Positions 1,861-57,227 of a stretch of 64,000 nt of DNA are shown in pieces. The notes below the pieces were generated by a model, which saw only the letters and a program-made list of their open reading frames with translations, had not been told where the DNA came from and made no database searches. Source of the DNA: Candidatus Cloacimonadales bacterium (lineage in GTDB: Bacteria; Cloacimonadota; Cloacimonadia; Cloacimonadales; JAIOQZ01); the NCBI GenBank assembly GCA_963662655.2, contig CAXXTU010000002.1:608001-672000 (forward strand). Reading direction: 5' to 3'. Each line of letters starts with the position of its first letter. Positions within the stretch are counted from its first letter, which is position 1. A program made the translations under genes and the position numbers.

Positions 1861-2009
1861 AGAACATCCTTTGTTTTGGTTGTGGTGGAAATCCTCATCT
1901 ACAAATAAATCAAGAAACGTTCCAATATGCAAGCAAAATTATTACGTGGAAACTTCGAATCGTTGAATCAGCCCGGCAAGCTGGAGTTTTAATCCTTACG
2001 AAACCAAAC

Positions 2010-2136
2010 GGCGGGGCATCTTCGCCCGATCATGCCGCTCCAACGTGGATATAGCACACCATCGGAACAATCGAACGTAAAAAAATGGTGTGCAACACCA
2101 CGTCTGCGCGGCAGATCGAACGAATCTGCTCCCGCC
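2010..2136 (-). ncRNA. Structured intergenic hairpin element, copy 1 (candidate ncRNA or non-autonomous repeat)
   Basis: Nested inverted repeats; homologous to 25756-25883 with compensatory changes. A-C mismatches on + become G-U pairs on -. Confidence 0.6.
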
Positions 2137-2203
2137 TCGATGAACGTTTCAGGTAAACATTGACAGTAAAAAGTGATCAACGTTGTTTACATACGAGGTG
2201 AAA

Positions 2204-4239: not shown

Positions 4240-6432
4240 ATGTCGCCTGGAATACATTTGGAATATCTACCCCGAGGCGGTGTTGTTTTCGGCACCGGTG
4301 CAGACCGCATTCAGTTCGCCGCTCCGCCCGAGACGATCAAGGATACCATGAAGCTCGCAGATGGCGTACCAAGCCACTTCATGATTCCTCCGCACATGTT
4401 CGACATTCAGCGTGGTATCTCGCTGGCGGATATGGAATTCCCCGTGTATTACAACTTCTTCCAGGGTGGGAACAAAACGGCGGTGATCTGCACCGTCGAG
4501 CAGAAGAAACGCTTGCAAAATATCCTCAAAGAAGCTCTGTTCGGCCCAGAATCCCTCGATGTGATCAGGGATTATTCCTCCCAGTTCGCGCCAGAGATGA
4601 TTCCCGATCTGACAAACGAAATCAAGTATTTCCGCAAGCATCCGTTTATCGAGAACCACCAGATGACCCTCTCCGATCTCGTTCAGTTCAAGGTTTTCAA
4701 GGATAATCAGATCGAGATCGGATCATTCAAGATTAGAAGACAATCTGATGGGTGTTATTCCGTTGTGGATTGTGACGGAAATCATCTTACGCTCGACCAG
4801 ACATCGATCTTCGCAGGTGAGAGGAAAGAGCCGGAGGTCAACTACTACGCGTTCCGGCAACCCGTTTACGGCGTAACGATTCTCGGAGCCGGAGACGGCT
4901 TCAATCCGGATTCGACCACATCGGGCATGATCGTGTGGGTCAACCGCAGGGGAATCATCGTCGATCCCCCCGTGAACACGACGGAGGAGCTGGCAAAATT
5001 GGGTGTCAGCCCCAAGCTGATCGATGGCGTGATCCTTACGCATTGCCACTCGGATCACGACGCCGGCACGATTCAGCTTCTCATGCAGGAAGGACGCCTG
5101 AATCTGTACACCACGCAGACGATTTTCAAAGGATTTTTGCGCAAGATATCGTCCCTGACCTGCATCGAGAAGGAGCACCTTCGTAAAATGGTCGTCTTCC
5201 ATCCGGTGAAGGTCGGCAACCCGGAGAGGATCGGGGGCGCGGTATTCCACTTTCAGTACAACCTTCATTCGATTCCAACGATATCCTTGCGGGTGTCGCT
5301 GCAGGATGTGCGGATGGTTTACAGCTCCGATTCGCAGAACGATCCCGATTTCATCTTGAAGATGTACCGCGACGGAGTCATCGGGGAAGCGCGAAAAGAT
5401 CAATTGTTGCAGTTCCCCTGGGACAGCGATATCGTGTTCCACGAAGCCGGCGCAAAGCCTCTTCACACGCCCATAGAATTTCTGTGCAATCTCCCCGAAT
5501 CGGTTCGGAAGAGGATGTACCTGCTGCATACTGACCTTTCCAAGATTCCGCCCGATTCAGGTTTGAAGATCGCGCCGACCGGCCTGGCAAACACCATTGT
5601 GATCGATGTCGGCAAGCCGTTGTTCGATAGCTCAATCGAGGTCCTCGATGTGCTGGCGCACGTTGACCTCTTTCATGAACTGCCGATCGAGAAGGCGCGA
5701 GAGATACTCCTGTACATCCGGCGTTACCTCTTCAAGAAAGGCGAGTATATCTATCACCAGGGCGATGAGATTCACTTCTTCAACATCATCCTGCATGGAG
5801 CCGTGGAAATCGTTGAGGACCAGCGAGCCATCACAACCCTCAGCAAAGGGGATTTCTTCGGTGTGAGCGCTCTGCTCGAGGGGCATCCCCACACAGCTGA
5901 CGCGAAGGCGTTGACGGATGTGGAGATTCTTGCCTTCAAGAAGGACGATTTCCTGGCTTTGATCCAGGGAACCGGCATCGCGGAAGTTCTGGCGCACCTT
6001 GCCCGTATCCAGAATCGCGAGCTCTGGGACCTCGTCTGGCAGAACCCGGTGTTCTCCAATCTCACGCCCACGCAGATCATCCATTTGCACAGATCGTTCA
6101 AATCCGAGCTTGTTATCGTCCCGCCCGAGCGTTACTTTATCAAGGAAGGACAGAAACTTGATTCCTGTTATGTGATACGCAAGGGTAAAGTGCGCGTCTT
6201 GAAGAACGAAGAGGAGATCGACCTGATACAGGCGGGGGAAATCTTCGGCGTTACAGCGGTTTTCGAACCCAACAGCAAGGTCATGCACGGCTTTAAAAGC
6301 GTTGGAGAAGTTGAATTGTACCAGATCAGCAGAGATGTGATGATACAGTACATGGAGAAGTACCCGGGAGTATACGTTCGCCTTTACTACGCCAATTACA
6401 TTCAGGATATCGCGGAGGCATCATGCTTGTAA
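4240..6432 (+). CDS. Metallo-beta-lactamase-fold cyclic nucleotide phosphodiesterase with two C-terminal cNMP-binding domains
   Basis: THCHSDHDAG motif, LHSIP, HEAG. Two CNB-like repeats (IYHQGD...GDFFG; IKEGQ...GEIFG). Confidence 0.8.
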   Translation: MSPGIHLEYLPRGGVVFGTGADRIQFAAPPETIKDTMKLADGVPSHFMIPPHMFDIQRGISLADMEFPVYYNFFQGGNKTAVICTVEQKKRLQNILKEALFGPESLDVIRDYSSQFAPEMIPDLTNEIKYFRKHPFIENHQMTLSDLVQFKVFKDNQIEIGSFKIRRQSDGCYSVVDCDGNHLTLDQTSIFAGERKEPEVNYYAFRQPVYGVTILGAGDGFNPDSTTSGMIVWVNRRGIIVDPPVNTTEELAKLGVSPKLIDGVILTHCHSDHDAGTIQLLMQEGRLNLYTTQTIFKGFLRKISSLTCIEKEHLRKMVVFHPVKVGNPERIGGAVFHFQYNLHSIPTISLRVSLQDVRMVYSSDSQNDPDFILKMYRDGVIGEARKDQLLQFPWDSDIVFHEAGAKPLHTPIEFLCNLPESVRKRMYLLHTDLSKIPPDSGLKIAPTGLANTIVIDVGKPLFDSSIEVLDVLAHVDLFHELPIEKAREILLYIRRYLFKKGEYIYHQGDEIHFFNIILHGAVEIVEDQRAITTLSKGDFFGVSALLEGHPHTADAKALTDVEILAFKKDDFLALIQGTGIAEVLAHLARIQNRELWDLVWQNPVFSNLTPTQIIHLHRSFKSELVIVPPERYFIKEGQKLDSCYVIRKGKVRVLKNEEEIDLIQAGEIFGVTAVFEPNSKVMHGFKSVGEVELYQISRDVMIQYMEKYPGVYVRLYYANYIQDIAEASCL

Positions 6433-9393: not shown

Positions 9394-12300
9394 ATGAAAA
9401 TGAAACATTCACGGAAATTGATGTTATTAATCGTTTTATTGATGGCAGCGTTAAGCGCTCAAGCGCTTTACGTCGAAATCGGTGAAGGGACAAGTACAAC
9501 GTACTACTCTCCTGTTACCGGTTTATGGGACTACGGTTGGTCCAGAACGATCTTTTTGGCCGACGAACTCGGTACTGCAATGGATATCACAGGTTTGAGC
9601 TTACAGGTAAGTAATTCAGCCGCGCTAGATTATACCTTTGCAAACCAGAGTATCTATCTTGTTCACACTGCAGATGCAGAATTCACGGATCCTTCCTATC
9701 TCGATCCAGAAACTGCCGGTTACACACTGGTTAGGAATGGCGATATCACTTTCACCGGAACGGACTGGATAGAAATTCAGTTCGATAACGCTTTCTCCTA
9801 CAATGGCACGGACAATCTCATTCTCTGCTGGGTCAATAACGACGGAGACTGGGACTCGGACTATCCTGTCTTCTACTACACTTACATTTCGGGTCGTTGT
9901 TTATACGACAACCAGGACACAACTTTCCCCCAAATCGATGGAGCAATATCGGGTTATGTACCCAACATTCGTTTCCATTACACCATCGAAGGCGCACCGG
10001 AAGTCGCCTCAGATCCCAATCCTGGAAACGGCGCGGAAGATGTTCCTACAGACCTGAGTTCCCTGAGCTGGACCTTTGGCGCGAACACAAACAATTTCGA
10101 TGTTTACTTTGGGACGGACAATCCTCCTACGACGCTTATCGCTGACAATCAGGCAGCGTTCTCACCAATCGTAAGCCTTGAAGAAGAGCTTCTCGCAGAG
10201 ACGGATTATTACTGGAAAGTGATCTCCAGAAACAGTATCGGAGAAGTCTCCGGACCGGTATGGAGCTTTAAAACCGAAGACGTTTTGATCACCGAGTTCC
10301 CATACGGTTCGGATTTCGATGTGTTCCCTCCGGCCTATTTCGATCTTACAGGTGGTACAAGGAACTGGGCGCGGTATTCTTCCAACGGAATTACTGCCGC
10401 GTATTGTAATCTGTGGTCATGGGAAGAGGGCAATACAGCCTACATGAAACTTCCTCACATGACGCTTCCCGAATCACCGGCATTGACTTTCAACTGGTCT
10501 CATTTTTATAACGATGAATATCTTGAAGATGCTTTGACAGTTCAGATTTCCACAGACGATGGTGAAACTTGGACAAACCTTTGGTATAAAGAAGGTGTCG
10601 ACCTTGATTCAAACGATGGCGCTGGAAACACATCCCCCGGCGATTTTTCAACGATAGAAAACATCTCCCTCAACGACTATACTGGCCAGACGGTCGAGAT
10701 TCGCTTCTATGCACTCTCTGGATACGGCCCCAATCTCTATGTCGATAACGTTTACGTTTATTCCACGGGCACACCTCCCGGCCATGTGACTGCAGTAAGC
10801 CCCGAAGATGGCGAGGAAGGCGTTCTTCTGGACGGTACCCTTCAATGGAGCGCTGCTTTTGGAGCTGAGGGTTACAGTCTGTCATTTGGTACGGACAACC
10901 CACCAACGAACATTGTCAACAATGCCGACCAGGGCGAAAACACGACGTACGCATTCGAGAACCTCGATATCAATACCGTGTACTACTGGCAAGTCGTGCC
11001 TTACAATGGAGGCGGAAACGCCGTTGACTGCCCTGTATTCAGTTTCACGTCGATCGCAGTTCCTCTTCCTGCATCCGCTGTTGCGCCGACAAACTACGCT
11101 ACTGAAATTCCAAACGCAGGCACCCTGGAATGGTCGGACGCCTATATCGCTACCGGATACAAACTGTTCCTTGGAACAGACGACCCTCCCACAGACATTG
11201 TGAATGGAACGGACCTCGGCGAAGCGACTACATACAACTTCTCCGATCTCGACCTCAACACTACCTACTACTGGCAGGTTGTTCCTTACAATGGCAACGG
11301 CGATGCCGTCGATTGCCCGGTATGGAGATTCACTACGTTCAATTTGCCTGAAGTAACGGATTACAAAGCGCCTCGTGAAGAAGAACTCGATGTTCCCGAA
11401 TCGGGCGTACTTGTTTGGGATGAAATCGATGCTGACGGCTACTGCTTGTTCTTCGGAACCGACAATCCTCCAACAAACGTTGTGAATGGAAGCGACCTTG
11501 GTTTGGATAACTACTACCAATACCAAAATCTGGCGTTGAACACAACCTACTACTGGCAGGTCGTTCCTTACAACGCTGCCGGTAATGCAATCGAATGCCC
11601 GATCTGGAGCTTCACGACTGTCGCGACAAGTTCCAACTTCGGTACGGACGGTACGTACTACTTCGCGAACAGCATCTCCGATGGTGCTGCGCCCAGCTAT
11701 CCAACTTATAACTGGATCGATACGACGGATCATACAGAGTTGGTTCTGAACGGTAGTTCCCCTGATAACGGCAGCGCTGATGATGGAAACTGGAAGGTTG
11801 CATTACCGTTCAGCTTCCCGTTCTACGGAACGATGCAGGATACCGTTTGGGTGTCGACCAACGGAACGATCACATTCAGCAATTCCGCTCCGTACCAGAA
11901 CAAGCTCATCCCGGATGCAACAGTTCCCAACGGCTTAATTGCACCTCTGTGGGACGATTTCGAGTATTCGAACGATGCTCAGGTGTTTGTCGGTTCGAGC
12001 TCGAACAGCGTTACCATTACATACTGGCATCTGCCTACCCATACCTCTCCAACCAGCTACTACATGACGACACAGGTTACCATGTTCACAGACGGCAAAA
12101 TCATCGTGTGCTTCAACTACGATGAAAGCGCCGGCTATGTCAACTTTGGTGGCGCTTACGAATACGACTGTACAGTCGGTATTGAAAACATGGATGCAAC
12201 ATCCGGTATCCAGTATCGTGCATGTACGGATTACAACGGTGAATCCCCTCTGTATAACTTTGTCGGCGGACCAATCTATGATGTGAACGGCGGAAACCTG

Positions 12301-12609
12301 GCTCTGGCATTCGGTACCGACCAGAACGATCTCGACTGGCCTGTTGCCGGTCCTGGCGCACCGACAAACGTTGCGATCACCGTTGCCGAAGGCGCGACCC
12401 AGCTCAGCTGGAGCGCAGTCGACGGAGCAGCTTGTTACCACATCTACTACTGTGAGACACCGGACGGCACATTCGAGCTGCTCGGAACCACGGCAGAGAC
12501 GAGCTACACGCACAACGTTGTGAGTGGCAAATATTTCTACCATGTGAAATCGGACGACAGCGGAATCCTTCGCAACAACGTCCGTAAGTCCAGAAAGTTC
12601 TCAAAATAA
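9394..12609 (+). CDS. Large secreted protein with four Fn3-like repeats, a cleaved-adhesin-like domain and a nidogen-like domain
   Basis: Signal peptide; four GTD(N/D)PPT...YYW...FT/FK repeats; LPFSFPFYG...VSTNG...IAPLWDD; GGAGG RBS. Confidence 0.75.
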   Translation: MKMKHSRKLMLLIVLLMAALSAQALYVEIGEGTSTTYYSPVTGLWDYGWSRTIFLADELGTAMDITGLSLQVSNSAALDYTFANQSIYLVHTADAEFTDPSYLDPETAGYTLVRNGDITFTGTDWIEIQFDNAFSYNGTDNLILCWVNNDGDWDSDYPVFYYTYISGRCLYDNQDTTFPQIDGAISGYVPNIRFHYTIEGAPEVASDPNPGNGAEDVPTDLSSLSWTFGANTNNFDVYFGTDNPPTTLIADNQAAFSPIVSLEEELLAETDYYWKVISRNSIGEVSGPVWSFKTEDVLITEFPYGSDFDVFPPAYFDLTGGTRNWARYSSNGITAAYCNLWSWEEGNTAYMKLPHMTLPESPALTFNWSHFYNDEYLEDALTVQISTDDGETWTNLWYKEGVDLDSNDGAGNTSPGDFSTIENISLNDYTGQTVEIRFYALSGYGPNLYVDNVYVYSTGTPPGHVTAVSPEDGEEGVLLDGTLQWSAAFGAEGYSLSFGTDNPPTNIVNNADQGENTTYAFENLDINTVYYWQVVPYNGGGNAVDCPVFSFTSIAVPLPASAVAPTNYATEIPNAGTLEWSDAYIATGYKLFLGTDDPPTDIVNGTDLGEATTYNFSDLDLNTTYYWQVVPYNGNGDAVDCPVWRFTTFNLPEVTDYKAPREEELDVPESGVLVWDEIDADGYCLFFGTDNPPTNVVNGSDLGLDNYYQYQNLALNTTYYWQVVPYNAAGNAIECPIWSFTTVATSSNFGTDGTYYFANSISDGAAPSYPTYNWIDTTDHTELVLNGSSPDNGSADDGNWKVALPFSFPFYGTMQDTVWVSTNGTITFSNSAPYQNKLIPDATVPNGLIAPLWDDFEYSNDAQVFVGSSSNSVTITYWHLPTHTSPTSYYMTTQVTMFTDGKIIVCFNYDESAGYVNFGGAYEYDCTVGIENMDATSGIQYRACTDYNGESPLYNFVGGPIYDVNGGNLALAFGTDQNDLDWPVAGPGAPTNVAITVAEGATQLSWSAVDGAACYHIYYCETPDGTFELLGTTAETSYTHNVVSGKYFYHVKSDDSGILRNNVRKSRKFSK

Positions 12610-25588: not shown

Positions 25589-25755
25589 CCAGACCCCTAC
25601 TACTTAGGATGTAATAATTACTTTATGTATTCAACTTCCTTCATGTGAGCTTCTTATTTACAATATACTGGTACTCGGTAAAATGTGACAAATTCTTTTT
25701 GGATTATTCTTTCGCATAGAGTACATGGTATGATTCTTTCACAAGCTGGTATACC

Positions 25756-25883
25756 GGCGTGGCATCTTCGCCCGATTCCCCTTTTCAACGTGGATATACC
25801 GCGCCTTCGAGACTACCGGACACGAGATAAAAAGGCGCGAAACACCACGTTGAAAAGGTGGATCGAACCAATCTGCTGCCGCC
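25756..25883 (-). ncRNA. Structured intergenic hairpin element, copy 2
   Basis: Shares GGCATCTTCGCCCGAT, CAACGTGGATATA, AACACCACGT and GATCGAACxAATCTGCTxCCGCCTCG with copy 1; stems covary. Confidence 0.6.
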
Positions 25884-25921
25884 TCGTGCGAGGGCCTGGT
25901 GCGTGGTGGCTTTTTCATGAA

Positions 25922-27928
<2,007 letters not shown>

Positions 27929-29137: not shown

Positions 29138-29181
29138 AATTTCATCTCCTGTAAAATGTTCAAACTACTACAATTGGTTAT

Positions 29182-29300
29182 TCCCGGAGTCAGATTGGTT
29201 CGAACCCGTCCCGGAAATGTATTCAGTCACAGCGATAGCTGTGGCAATATACATTGGAGGGTGAGCGGAGCTCAAGGGATCGGGCCAATGTGGCCCGGGG
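29182..29300 (+). ncRNA. Structured intergenic hairpin element, diverged copy 3 (opposite orientation)
   Basis: CAGATTGGTTCGA...GATCGGGCCAA matches the minus strand of copies 1 and 2; nested stems. Confidence 0.45.
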
Positions 29301-29325
29301 TGCCTTCGTTGAGCTGCTCGTTTCC

Positions 29326-53264: not shown

Positions 53265-54995
53265 TTAACGGGCTGTGTATCGCTTCCGCATGATTTCGAT
53301 CATCATGCCCAGGCGATGCTTATAGGTTTCGTTTCGAGTCACCCTGCTATATGCATTCCGGGCGTATCTCTCGCGAACGGAGTCGTTCTCCAGATAGAAG
53401 GCGACAAGCTCCGGGATTTCTTCGACATCCCTGAAGAATACGATTTCCTCGCCACTCGTATCGAAGATTTCTTCGAGCTGCTGTTTGTAATCCGTCAGGA
53501 TGAATTTTCCACAGGCGGGGACGTCGAAGACGCGCTGGTTCACGGCGTTTTTCATCTGCCGGCTGGTCATGTTGAAGTTGATCCGACTGGTGTTGTAAAC
53601 CTGAGGCAGGTTGTCGTAGTAGAGTACTTCGCGCTCGATGCGATAGCGGTTGTTGAGGATAGTATCCCAGTTGGGGTCTCCGAAGACGGTGGGATAGAAC
53701 GGCGCGAGTTTCTCAATGCCGCTCAGGCGGTACATTTGCGTTGCGCGCCAGAGGACGGCGGCCTCGAAATCGAGCTGTTGTTCGGGATAATCGAAGGCGA
53801 GTTCGATTCCGGTAGCGCGGACTCTGTCGATGGCTTCGATGACGTAGCGGCTATCGATGCCGAGGAACTCCAGGGCAACGGTATCCAGATGGTAGAGGAG
53901 GTCGCGGCGGAACACCATGCTGCGCAGGTTTTTGTGCGTGCTGTATACCATGCTGCTTCCCACGAAAGAGACGTCCGTCTTGTAGGGGAGATCGAGGGGT
54001 TTGAAGAGCTCCGGCATGGTCGCGAGCGGCAGGTAATCGACATGCGGATAACCGGCGTCGATAACGTCCTGAATGTAGTCACGATCCCAGACGAAGATGT
54101 TGCAGTAGTCCGATATGTTGGTGTCCTTCCCACTGAGAACGACGGTAGGGCTATCGACGAACCAGGAGATAAACGGAATTTCAAGCTCGCTGAGGAGTTC
54201 CGTCATGCGCCCTTCCTGGTCGAATCCAAGGTGGTTGATCGTGAGAACGAAATCCGGCTTGAATTGGCTGATGAGCGTAAGGAAGTTCCGCACAAACTCG
54301 TCGTACTGGTAGTTGTCCTTGTCGATGTGGATGTACTGTACGGCGTGGCCCAGTTGCTGGAGCGCGGAAAGGCACTCCTTTGTCAGCACATATCCGCTAT
54401 CGATGAAAATCACCTTGAGCTTGGATGCCCCGGCGAATTTCTTGTATTTCCACTGATCGCTAAGGTCGAAGATGGGCTTGTTCTGCAATCGTCTTTTGAC
54501 GGCGTCGAAGTACCGCGGGAGCAGACGGGTTCGCTGCTTGATCTCAAGTATTTCGATCTCATCGATGTTGCCGATGAAATCGAGAACCTCGAAGTCTTCG
54601 TACCCTATGATGAAGCGAACGGACTCTGGCAGTTTGGAGATGTCGATAGTCTGCATGGCGAGGTTGAAGAGGTTTTTGTCGGGTTCAATCACCGTAATGA
54701 TCTTATCCGGGAAACGCTTGCAGAGCGGATCGAGTCCGTAGCCGAGTCCAATACCCAGGCAAACGATGTGGGGCTTCTCCGTTTTCACACTTTCGGCCCA
54801 ACGGATTGCCTCGCGAGTGGGGTAGTAGCTGCTATGGAGCGTGACCTTCTCCCCGTTCTCTTCAAAGATTAACCCGGGAGCATCTTCCTTGCTGGGAATC
54901 AGTGTGAATTCACTCGTGAATCGGCAATGCCCCTTATTAATGTGTGCGCCTGAACGACCGGCGAGTGTCCGGTGATTTCTCTCGAATCGGTTCAT
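53265..54995 (-). CDS. CgeB-family glycosyltransferase with N-terminal MAF/methyltransferase-like domain
   Basis: LHSSYYPTREA, GIGLGY; WFVDSP, LPLA, VSFVG, NQRVFDVPACG, TYKHR. Confidence 0.75.
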   Translation of the reverse strand: MNRFERNHRTLAGRSGAHINKGHCRFTSEFTLIPSKEDAPGLIFEENGEKVTLHSSYYPTREAIRWAESVKTEKPHIVCLGIGLGYGLDPLCKRFPDKIITVIEPDKNLFNLAMQTIDISKLPESVRFIIGYEDFEVLDFIGNIDEIEILEIKQRTRLLPRYFDAVKRRLQNKPIFDLSDQWKYKKFAGASKLKVIFIDSGYVLTKECLSALQQLGHAVQYIHIDKDNYQYDEFVRNFLTLISQFKPDFVLTINHLGFDQEGRMTELLSELEIPFISWFVDSPTVVLSGKDTNISDYCNIFVWDRDYIQDVIDAGYPHVDYLPLATMPELFKPLDLPYKTDVSFVGSSMVYSTHKNLRSMVFRRDLLYHLDTVALEFLGIDSRYVIEAIDRVRATGIELAFDYPEQQLDFEAAVLWRATQMYRLSGIEKLAPFYPTVFGDPNWDTILNNRYRIEREVLYYDNLPQVYNTSRINFNMTSRQMKNAVNQRVFDVPACGKFILTDYKQQLEEIFDTSGEEIVFFRDVEEIPELVAFYLENDSVRERYARNAYSRVTRNETYKHRLGMMIEIMRKRYTAR

Positions 54996-55405
54996 ACGTT
55001 GTCTTCAAGGAATCTCAATAAACGTTCTTCTACCAATTCAAATCGCTTCAACTCGCACTCCCAGATAACTAAAGTTCGCCATCCAGCATTTGTTAGGTAT
55101 GTAATATTTTGTTTGTCTCTGAGAATATTGTTGCCAATTTTGACCGCCCAATATTCTTTATTGGTTGAAGGTTTATTATTTCCATGTTTGCAATTATGTC
55201 CATGCCAAAAACAGCCGTTAACGAAAATTGCTTTCTTCTTCGAAGGGAATACAATATCTGGTTTTCCAGGTAAATCCTTGTAATTAATACGATATCTATA
55301 ACCATGGCGATACAAATATTTGCGAATTTTTATTTCTGGCCCGGTGTTTTTGGATTTCACGGATCTCATGATTTGAGTTCTCTTTTTTTTTGAGACATGA
55401 TCCAT
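54992..55405 (-). CDS. vsr: Very short patch repair endonuclease
   Basis: KNTGPE, LPGKPDI, FVNGCFWHGH, IWECEL. Confidence 0.93.
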   Translation of the reverse strand: MDHVSKKKRTQIMRSVKSKNTGPEIKIRKYLYRHGYRYRINYKDLPGKPDIVFPSKKKAIFVNGCFWHGHNCKHGNNKPSTNKEYWAVKIGNNILRDKQNITYLTNAGWRTLVIWECELKRFELVEERLLRFLEDNV

Positions 55406-56139
55406 TAATATACAAGCTCAACCCAAGACTCATTGAATCCAACTATACGCATTACATCTTCATGGACCAATCGAGGAGACTTTAAAAGCCTAATGTTCAG
55501 TCTTTTATTTGGGACTTCTTCAATTATTGTGAACTGGGAACCGTGTGGTTGCCATGTAAATTTATGTTTTCCAGTCCTTACATCTGTAGCAATTAAATTA
55601 TTATTGGAATTCCATTCCCAGGAAAATTGCTCGGGTATATACAATGAAGTTTCTGTCTCAAAAATCGTCAATTCCCTCAAATCAATGCCTTTAATTAACA
55701 CAACAGTTCGGAGATGGCGATATTTAGCTCTTGTTGAGGTCACTCTTTCATTCCAGATATCCAATACTTTTGGCCCAACAAGATTTGGATCAATATTCAA
55801 AACTTTTTCTTCACCAAAAGAGTATGCAAGAGAATTACGCCCAGAGATTAATCTTACCTTCTTTGCACTAAAGGGATTAGTGTTCTTGACTGTTTTAGCT
55901 CCCCATGCCATTTGTTTATTAACAACGTCATCAAGCCCAATGTTTGATGGCGTCCATTCTGCCCCAATTGATTTCGCAAAAATTTCTTCCCAGTCAGAAC
56001 CAATAATTCGTGGATTATCCTGTGTTGCGATGGTGTAAATAATTGATTCTGCCACCAAGTATGGAAAATTGGATGGGAAACTGTTTAATGGATACAATGG
56101 ATCGTACTTGTCAGCCGATCTGAGTTTTGGTCTATTCAT
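55405..56139 (-). CDS. Putative type II restriction endonuclease
   Basis: Lies between the MTase and vsr and overlaps both; DWEEIF...LDDVV...GAKTVK resembles a PD-(D/E)xK site. Confidence 0.65.
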   Translation of the reverse strand: MNRPKLRSADKYDPLYPLNSFPSNFPYLVAESIIYTIATQDNPRIIGSDWEEIFAKSIGAEWTPSNIGLDDVVNKQMAWGAKTVKNTNPFSAKKVRLISGRNSLAYSFGEEKVLNIDPNLVGPKVLDIWNERVTSTRAKYRHLRTVVLIKGIDLRELTIFETETSLYIPEQFSWEWNSNNNLIATDVRTGKHKFTWQPHGSQFTIIEEVPNKRLNIRLLKSPRLVHEDVMRIVGFNESWVELVY

Positions 56140-57113
56140 TTCACCGCTTCCATGGTTTCTTTATTTGCCTGAAAACAAGTGCTAAGCTCGATCAATGATT
56201 TGATAGATTCAAAGATTACTTCTTGAGCAACAGGTACAGGTAAGCTGTTGCCGGCTTGTTTTCTTGTTTGCGCATAGCTGCAAACAATACGAAAAGAATT
56301 TGGAAATCCTTGCAGTCTTAACATCTCTCTTGAGGTAAGTCTTCTTTCACCATTGACTAACAAATAATTATATGAAGCTCCAGCTCTCAAGGCGCACGAG
56401 TATGGTAGGATGCTTATATTACCCGACTTATTCTCATGCCAAATCCTTGTCTCTTCTGATTTATTTCTGTTCTTCTTCCTCTTTTCTTGTATATATTTGG
56501 AGGCATAATACATTGCGTCTGGATTCTCTTCTAGCAATACATCCAATGGAGTCATTTCTCTTCTCTCTTTAGGCCAACGGAAAAAAGGATTAAAATTCCT
56601 AAACCCAACAATAAACAGTCTCTCTCTTTTCTGTGGTAAGCCAAAATCCATGGCGTTTAATATCTTATATTCAATGGAGGTATATCCGATATCGCCAAGA
56701 GTTCTTAAGATTGTTTTCAGTGTTCTTCCTTGATCATGGTTTAACAACTGCTTAACATTTTCGAGAACAAAAAAGGACGGGGTCTTGGCCTCCAATATGC
56801 GTGCAATATCAAAGAAAAGAGTTCCTCGAATATCATTAAATCCTTTTCTTTGACCAATAATGCTGAATGGTTGACATGGGAAACCTGCAAGAAGGCAATC
56901 GTGATCAGGTACATCGTTAGCCATAATCTGCGAGATATCTCCAAATGGAGTCTCGTCAAAATTAGCTTTGTATGCTTTTCTACATTCCTTATCAATGTCG
57001 CTTGAAAGAACGCATCTCGAATCTAGCCCTAGAGCTTTTGTAGCATTTTCAAATGCTATTCTAAAACCACCAATCCCTGAGAATAAATCAATGAATTTCA
57101 ATTCTTTTTTCAT
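56136..57113 (-). CDS. DNA (cytosine-5)-methyltransferase
   Basis: DLFSGIGG, GFPCQPFS, ENV, PQKRER, RLQGFP, GNS. Confidence 0.95.
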   Translation of the reverse strand: MKKELKFIDLFSGIGGFRIAFENATKALGLDSRCVLSSDIDKECRKAYKANFDETPFGDISQIMANDVPDHDCLLAGFPCQPFSIIGQRKGFNDIRGTLFFDIARILEAKTPSFFVLENVKQLLNHDQGRTLKTILRTLGDIGYTSIEYKILNAMDFGLPQKRERLFIVGFRNFNPFFRWPKERREMTPLDVLLEENPDAMYYASKYIQEKRKKNRNKSEETRIWHENKSGNISILPYSCALRAGASYNYLLVNGERRLTSREMLRLQGFPNSFRIVCSYAQTRKQAGNSLPVPVAQEVIFESIKSLIELSTCFQANKETMEAVK

Positions 57114-57227
57114 AAATCTCTCCATTTCCCATTTTGAGTACAAGATTTAGATGTCAAGAAATATCCTGCCATGTGTTGGAGCTTCGAAAAATCTTGACAG
57201 AAAGATTTTGTACCCTTAAGTAAACGC

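Follow-up and report, generated by a model that had tools for sequence, protein, structure and literature searches.

A hairpin first noticed in two aligned copies is no two-copy RNA: it is a genus-specific, dispersed intergenic repeat present in 120–150 copies in its own genome (122 strong copies; 147 when divergent and partial ones are included). Rather than encoding an RNA, it likely represents a mobile element of single-stranded DNA, and we are somewhat more inclined to believe than to doubt that it is a non-autonomous, REPIN/BIME-like one, with fixed strand-specific mismatches and parts exchanged between copies. As far as we searched, the family is undescribed: literature searches on Cloacimonadota repeats listed nothing on it, and the main text of a 2026 preprint on non-coding clusters, whose supplements could hold the motif, does not contain 'cloacimon'.

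The window, the whole 64,000-nt stretch analysed, comes from a 3.8-Mb genome (G000) with three congeners (G001, G002 and G003), and holds three copies of the element (Table 1). Both copies reported at the outset, at 2010–2136 and 25756–25883, are in place with all their conserved blocks, 97 of 133 columns being identical when 2009–2139 is aligned with 25755–25886; the third copy, to which the preliminary description had only alluded, lies on the opposite strand. The paired substitutions are also as described: the inner stem CACACCAT/ATGGTGTG becomes CGCGCCTT/AAGGCGCG through three double changes, and the middle stem TGCCGC/GCGGCA is replaced by CCTTTT/AAAAGG. Copy 2 sits 36 nt past the stop codon of ligA (25922–27910, minus) and upstream of a PAS histidine kinase gene. 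The divergent copy 3 (covariance model E 0.002, folding z −7.0) has a TTGG/CCAA variant, a side hairpin with a GGA triloop and an inner loop swapped between arms. A promoter scan around copy 1 gave 0 sites, and the sole terminator-like match there was the inner stem itself.

Table 1. Positions of the element, its parts and its inverted pairs (window coordinates unless a contig is named)
Feature	Position	Strand	Remarks
Copy 1, rod hairpin	2010..2138	folding strand minus	divergent intergenic gap; covariance model 140 bits
Weakly conserved unpaired tail	1999..2009	minus	3' of folding strand; copy 1 matches poorly; from logos
Tail family pattern, about TGG-Y-Y-A-Y-C	copy 1 site 1999..2009	other strand	from logos
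Outer stem arm	2010..2015	plus	partner 2131–2136; T2130 is a bulged A on the folding strand
Outer motif, left arm, conserved	2016..2031	plus	partner 2114–2129
Middle stem, left arm, variable	2032..2044	plus	partner 2102–2113
Inner motif, left arm, conserved (GTGG ATATA)	2045..2053	plus	partner 2094–2101 (AACA CCAC)
Inner stem and apical loop	2054..2093	plus	2054–2062 pairs with 2085–2093
Right arm	2094..2129	plus	inner motif 2094–2101, variable stem 2102–2113, outer motif 2114–2129
Copy 2	25756..25885	folding strand minus	covariance model 130 bits
Copy 3, divergent subtype	29172..29311	folding strand plus	upstream of serpin gene
Inverted pairs, G000 contig C2	13783/13952, 90126/90172, 414374/414422, 1230448/1230478		
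Inverted pairs, G000 contig C2	2254936/2254950, 2349512/2349611, 2468507/2468606, 3341298/3341322		

The same parts follow one another in 113 of the 122 strong copies: outer stem, bulge, outer motif, variable stem, inner motif, inner stem and loop. On the folding strand, the outer motif (2016–2031 with 2114–2129) combines a GA/GA tandem with a UU/GG tandem wobble; the inner motif forms an asymmetric UGUU/UAUAU loop, with ATATA and AACA each kept in 106 of 113 copies. The left arm of the middle stem comes in 98 distinct versions among the 113 parsed copies, 48 of which carry a G·A, N-N, A·G loop in this stem on the folding strand. Apical loops range from 4 to 295 nt across the family, often with small cargo hairpins inside.

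Three further features of the window deserve mention in their own right. A C5 methyltransferase, an unknown 244-aa gene and a Vsr endonuclease form one cluster at 54992–57143; a 730-aa protein (4240–6432) joins a metallo-beta-lactamase fold to two cNMP-binding domains, with a weak Apyc1 match below cut-off; and ~285-nt, fn3-like internal repeats of a 1071-aa protein (9394–12609) are the largest direct repeats in the window.

The minus strand of copies 1 and 2 folds better than the plus strand, as had been proposed, by RNA energies (−80.3 versus −65.1 and −70.1 versus −56.3 kcal/mol, respectively) and by DNA energies (−41.6 versus −38.9 and −34.1 versus −31.8). Its RNA folds have z-scores of −9.0 and −7.5, with 0 of 200 shuffles as good. 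Across the family, the folding strand has the lower MFE in 120 of 122 copies as RNA and in 114 of 122 as DNA. Mismatches in 76 distinct equal-length middle stems read G·A (84), G·T (37) and G·G (27) on that strand, versus C·T (5), A·C (11) and C·C (3) for the complementary types, so that strand is the one that folds; the outer stem lacks a G·U asymmetry (21 versus 19). The arms, moreover, differ in fixed ways (TC/TC, CC/AA and ATATA/AACA).

Covariation held up in a larger alignment of 38 sequences (37 distinct), in which 93.8% of cells pair, against 31–45% in slid controls. Both sides change in 27 of 41 pairs, which 0 of 500 shuffles reach in a test that the relatedness of the sequences inflates. 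The variable stem shows 72% Watson–Crick pairing versus 41% with shuffled partners. Selection acting on the single-strand fold (minus in copies 1 and 2) is supported. The original argument, that conserved loops with covarying stems indicate selection, stands for the fold of one strand but is less secure for each individual pair: the covariation is real, but it is partly a by-product of exchange between copies, because arm-to-arm template switching and inter-copy exchange can produce it and both have left traces here.

An arm-profile search of the home genome gave 133 paired, non-overlapping matches, of which the 122 with arm scores above 25 and above 20 bits were kept, and a motif scan found 114 matches versus 1 in the reversed genome. 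A covariance model, R1, built from 38 copies matched 129 of 150 candidates scored in G000 and gave 38, 40 and 66 matches in the three congeners (some being reverse-strand duplicates), but 0 in 4 other genomes of the same taxonomic family and, with stricter filters, 0 in 148 other genomes of the phylum sample. BLAST drew the same boundary, with the element in 3 of 3 congeners and 0 of 37 other genomes, and 26 of 30 matches in an exact-pattern scan of GTDB belong to Candidatus Cloacimonadales bacterium. The four GTDB matches from outside Cloacimonadales and five metagenome matches to the exact pattern all fail the covariance model. Viral contigs and phage and plasmid collections gave no match to the element, and read contigs from two runs of one sample, which span the locus, gave no joint lacking it. 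Rfam 15 returned 0 gathering matches in the window and, across six loci, nothing overlapping the element at E ≤ 1. The preliminary description did not recognise it as a tRNA, SRP RNA, riboswitch or attC site, and that view is supported.

Among copies, nearest-neighbour identity has a median of 0.82 and a maximum of 0.94, by which measure they are old. Eight inverted back-to-back pairs occur in G000, always joined at the tail side (Table 1), and those at 2349k and 2468k are near-duplicates of each other, linker included. Several single sites stand out on contig C2. Three copies, one divergent and one truncated, surround genes that we read by eye as umuD- and umuC-like at 832.8k–836.5k, one of them between both genes. 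Two copies at 1733418–1737092 flank three genes resembling, again by eye, a terminase/portal remnant, and one of these copies has a 295-nt loop with tandem cargo units. A copy at 1153446–1154428 lies 12 nt past the stop codon of a XerD-like gene, probably by chance, given 122 copies. In G002 (C17:177.2k–195.7k, L130–L131), the left arm of an element is split by 18.6 kb of inserted DNA, which has short inverted ends and a direct repeat of 5 bp and carries DDE transposase, sigma-54 activator and FG-GAP genes.

By the calls of our own simple gene caller (2853 genes), which make context classes approximate, only 3 of 122 copies overlap a gene, by 1–9 nt; 52 of 122 lie in convergent gaps versus 138 of 925 of all gaps (p = 4e-16), and 10 of 122, copy 1 among them, lie in divergent gaps versus 251 of 925. 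Convergent-gap enrichment is typical of REPs. Of 118 copies on C2, 88 have the G-rich, leading strand as their non-folding strand (p = 9e-8), and adding divergent copies gives 104 of 142, so by standard skew reasoning the folding strand lies mostly on the leading-strand template. The ratio is 35:15 in convergent gaps, 9:1 in divergent gaps and 14:7 where flanking genes run on the lagging strand. In G001, the strand switches with the replichore in 32 of 33 distinct loci, and 39 of 43 loci of the relatives agree with local skew. In tandem (co-oriented) gaps, by comparison, the folding strand is sense in 21 of 60 and antisense in 39. Orientation thus follows replication rather than genes or transcription.

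This polarity weighs on the reading of the element as RNA, be it a 3'-UTR structure or folding-strand sRNA acting in protein binding or transcript stability, or an RNA spread by reverse transcription, all of which we consider rather unlikely. About half of the copies lie within 30 nt of a stop codon, as such a reading would have it, and a gene reads into the folding strand without a terminator (simple scan) in 51 of 122, so many copies are probably transcribed as 3' UTR; yet a terminator precedes the folding strand in 22 of 73, and the minority of sense copies in tandem gaps and the copies in divergent gaps fit an RNA function poorly. The fold advantage of the folding strand is large in RNA (mean 14 kcal/mol versus 4 for DNA), and its tandem U·G, tandem GA, U·U and 5'-GGA/5'-GAA loops are compatible with RNA, the last as seen in thermodynamic work on SRP RNA. 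G·T, G·A and G·G pairs nevertheless fit RNA and DNA alike. A precedent for a transcribed repeat with compensatory changes exists in bcr1 of Bacillus cereus (in the part of PMC3184786 cited).

Loops and reverse transcriptases add to the case against RNA. Cargo-hairpin triloops are GNA in 37 of 59, counting either strand, while other intergenic DNA has 183 of 1338 per strand, and C-G-closed GNA triloops number 10 on the folding strand versus 1 on the other; DNA mini-hairpins of the GCGNAGC type are reported to be much more stable than their RNA counterparts (PMC13037366, in part). This is modest evidence for DNA-type loops, since few cargo families supply these loops (12 distinct stems in 15 copies) and the non-folding strand carries 18 of the 37. 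RNA-type tetraloops are lacking (GNRA 1 of 16, cUUCGg 0). G001 has 33 copies and no reverse transcriptase match, and the element is absent from five reverse transcriptase loci searched. The only reverse transcriptase of G000 (L001, C2:981.0k–983.3k), a candidate that we take to be of defence type, is broken by a frameshift into frames of 148 and 358 aa, with a 217-aa HTH protein after them, and its locus lacks the element. Of the two possibilities first offered, an ncRNA or a REP-like element, the latter is now the best reading, and a new ncRNA is disfavoured by the replication-linked polarity, the 39 antisense versus 21 sense copies and the DNA-type loops.

Strong replichore polarity in at least two genomes might instead mark domesticated polar chromosomal sites with a host role at the replication fork, such as priming, restart or protein loading. 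Some positions are common to species at ~75–80% protein identity at 21 of 73 gene ends versus 274 of 5706 genome-wide, a background of all gene ends uncorrected for intergenic space, and mini-hairpins are reported at ssDNA priming sites (PMC13037366, in part). We hold a host site to be very unlikely, however, for an element confined to one genus, with copy numbers varying from at least 33 to 147 across genomes, uneven spacing with gaps of 200 kb, and presence/absence differences between close relatives (3 empty sites).

The element's interior is modular. Rank correlations of similarity between modules run from −0.06 to 0.09, whereas those between two arms of the same stem are 0.52 and 0.83, and excess mutual information is 0.006–0.008 between outer stem and interior, 0.083 between variable and inner stem and 0.07–0.15 within stems; the outer stem is statistically unlinked from the interior. 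Near-identical middle stems are joined to unlike loops in 17 of 32 pairs. We also compared orthologous sites for 67 G002/G003 copies, drawn from at most ~0.9 Mb of each genome, which gave 8 parsed orthologous pairs (two sharing one G003 locus), 4 filled but unparsed sites and the 3 empty sites. Four of the 8 pairs are nearly identical. In the other 4, both middle-stem arms have been replaced (similarity 0.31–0.77) with pairing kept, while the outer stem remains at 0.86–1.0. Interiors have thus been exchanged between copies, through either gene conversion with repair and selection or recombination of the folded strand. As a separate observation, G002 loci L109 and L141 are two versions of one locus, 98% and 82–88% like G003, which suggests strain mixing or duplication in the assembly.

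Arms have also been rewritten. Two copies carry a 3' outer motif that has become the complement of its 5' counterpart, and pairing is perfect in 15 of 113 variable stems; an arm rewritten as the complement of its partner is a template-switch signature (PMC8794818, in part). The inner asymmetric loop is swapped between arms on the same strand in several copies, window copy 3 included.

Exchange of this kind is what attC-like sites would show, if a recombinase (host XerC/D or another) swapped or flipped helical segments of the folded strand at the mismatch motifs, making the elements rearrangement joints. The exchange is symmetric, in that just 2 of 113 variable stems fall below the median random chimera in strength, even where non-canonical pairs persist in both arms, although conversion with selection or repair could also yield such symmetry. 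In the L130/L155 pair, both middle arms differ and the inner stem and loop are 100% identical. Inversion of dsDNA cannot swap a loop between arms on one strand, but the swapped-loop subtype may go back to a single old event or a pair of them. A folding strand on the leading-strand template is also what attC bottom strands show in sedentary integrons (in the part of PMC5371416 cited). Synteny with the own genome holds for 4 of 19 gaps that contain the element versus 48 of 82 that do not (p = 0.004), a contrast confounded with gap size that falls to 3 of 16 versus 16 of 38 at gaps of at least 300 nt, and a role in genome rearrangement is unproven. With an AAC/GTT core missing from the stem base in end logos, an integron integrase (TIGR02249) above cut-off in 0 of 5 genomes, control genomes likewise falling below it, and no cassette arrays, we regard attC-like sites as unlikely. 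The same goes for their boldest form, an integrase-free attC-like class of more than 100 folded-ssDNA recombining hairpins in which a protein swaps or flips segments at the two mismatch motifs; if true, stems would be independently inherited cassettes and the sites genome-shuffling joints.

The ends of the element are its least regular part. A scan for target duplications gave, at the best offset, 4 of 119 for 4-mers and 2 of 119 for 5-mers. Conserved terminal repeats were not found in the logos, where the terminal stem is variable and unlinked to the interior; flank logos also lack a GTAG/GGAG-type tag at the hairpin foot and symmetric ends, and the foot differs between species. What recurs, both in G000 and in its congeners, is a weak ~10-nt tail located 3' of the folding strand. 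A DDE-type MITE of the ordinary kind (ERIC/RUP/Correia-like) with decayed inverted ends would share the size (120–190 nt), the long hairpin, the intergenic placement and the variable interior of MITEs (PMC3184786, in part), but would be expected to leave target duplications; here the ends are the variable part and conservation falls on asymmetric mismatches inside the element. Nor would a double-stranded transposon be expected to show strand polarity. We judge a MITE highly improbable.

One clean empty/filled pair sets a 346-nt span against 20 nt, and the element lies there within a ~330-nt mosaic that replaces the loop of a small palindrome; since it arrived inside the mosaic, this site leaves the element's own ends undefined. 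In the congeners, a REP-like motif occurs within 300 nt of 45 of 85 copies and a RAYT-flank motif near 15 of 85, counts that have no control, whereas copies in G000 are nearly always alone (REP-like motif nearby in 2 of 147). Shared intergenic dead space may be what lies behind the association with REP mosaics. Downstream of their ligA orthologues, G001–G003 have a different neighbour, so copy 2 has no empty counterpart there. At least six REP-like units make up intergenic mosaics at L007, L150, L157 and L188 (G003) and L008 (G002). The Rfam Acido-Lenti-1 RNA acts in congener mosaics like one REP unit; it was presented as a candidate RNA only (Weinberg 2010, in the part of PMC2864571 cited).

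The preliminary description inferred that a REP-like element would be mobilised in trans, and proposed checking for linkage to HUH/RAYT transposase, TnpB/IscB or reverse transcriptase genes. No partner emerged among Y1/RAYT, reverse transcriptase, IntI, IS110 and neighbour searches. Y1 transposase (PF01797) is absent from G000, where tblastn with the relatives' Y1 proteins was empty and one HUH pattern gave 0 matches, and 0 of 17 Y1 loci of five relatives carry the element. At L014–L028 (in G001–G004 and G007) there are several RAYT-like Y1 genes, each with its own short flanking REP family; some of these REPs form long tandem arrays, as in L025 with 21 copies at ~36-nt spacing. No gene recurs beside 85 copies of the relatives, genes between close copies in G000 include no partner, and orphan arms there are truncated or divergent copies with no enclosed ORF. 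Integrase matches in G000 are, from reading the sequences, XerC- and XerD-like genes and a prophage/ICE set; an integrated element with three tyrosine-recombinase matches and IS3-like genes lies at C2:3.399–3.419 Mb (L059). IS110 (PF02371) is absent from G000 and present only in G002, where 0 of 6 loci searched, out of 17, carry the element. A search for Y2 (PF04986) gave no match, as did its control. With no pair of copies at least 95% identical and no Y1 transposase left, the G000 family is probably a decaying relic.

Under the REPIN/BIME-like reading, spread would likely depend on an HUH-type enzyme, none having been found among the genomes searched, and the two conserved mismatch motifs may be protein-recognition and strand-discrimination marks, like the REP bulge. 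New copies would arise via a single-stranded intermediate, in the congeners often inside REP-like mosaics. Copies would next swap interiors, breaking within the conserved motifs, and template switching would restore pairing between arms; these steps could account for much of the covariation. Biased insertion, or the loss of copies in the opposite orientation, would keep the better-folding strand from lying on the lagging-strand template. This reading has two weak points, the lack of an enzyme and a polarity opposite to that of the IS608 type. IS200/605-type HUH elements use the lagging-strand template (PMC3333891, in part), so a folding strand mostly on the leading-strand template demands an extra assumption; we infer loss of copies that fold on the lagging-strand template.

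More than 250 diverged copies in four genomes define a folded-ssDNA recognition code unusually sharply, and could serve as bait in a search for the enzyme. The spread of REP-like elements, and how they remain paired, is an open question, and the orthologous pairs catch both stem arms replaced at once. A caution also follows: in a multicopy repeat, even very strong covariation that includes G·U and GA pairs is not in itself proof of an RNA.

Among known systems, as portrayed in the parts of the papers cited, attC sites resemble the element in that one strand folds with unpaired features, in their variable terminal structure and in the leading-strand template (PMC5371416). The element differs in lacking an R''/R' core (RYYYAAC...GTTRRRY) at the stem base, its internal AAC/GTT varying with the middle stem, and in having far more primary conservation, no IntI and no cassette arrays; it lies beside housekeeping genes in either orientation. 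The bcr1 repeat of the Bacillus cereus group and ERIC are likewise group-specific, dispersed 125–155-nt repeats with a compensated fold. Unlike the element, a rod without duplication, bcr1 is flanked by 5-bp direct repeats, folds as a cruciform and has been shown to be transcribed, and ERIC is filed as a MITE with terminal inverted repeats (all PMC3184786).

REP/BIME with TnpA-REP in E. coli comes closer. It shares with the element a strand-specific ssDNA hairpin with conserved mismatches, which in REP are needed for TnpA-REP activity, and circular ssDNA intermediates have been proposed for it (PMC8266576, PMC3333891; in part). Inverted back-to-back pairs (8 here), mosaics in the congeners and convergent-gap enrichment are further likenesses; the element is 3–4x longer than E. 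coli REP, with two conserved mismatch motifs, no GTAG and no REPtron. REPINs of Pseudomonas fluorescens form hairpins whose ends are conserved and whose spacers are compensated (Bertels and Rainey 2011; PMC3116915, in part). Unlike REPINs, the element has asymmetric arms with fixed mismatches rather than two inverted REP copies, lacks a tag tetranucleotide and a flanked RAYT, and shows strong replichore polarity and nested module exchange. By the tests run it is not a REP/REPIN member, having no tag, asymmetric arms and no RAYT, although a lost partner is possible. What it has in common with REPINs is the dispersed intergenic hairpin of ~100–150 nt, the variable spacer with compensatory changes, the restriction to one lineage and the non-autonomous way of life (PMC3116915, in part).
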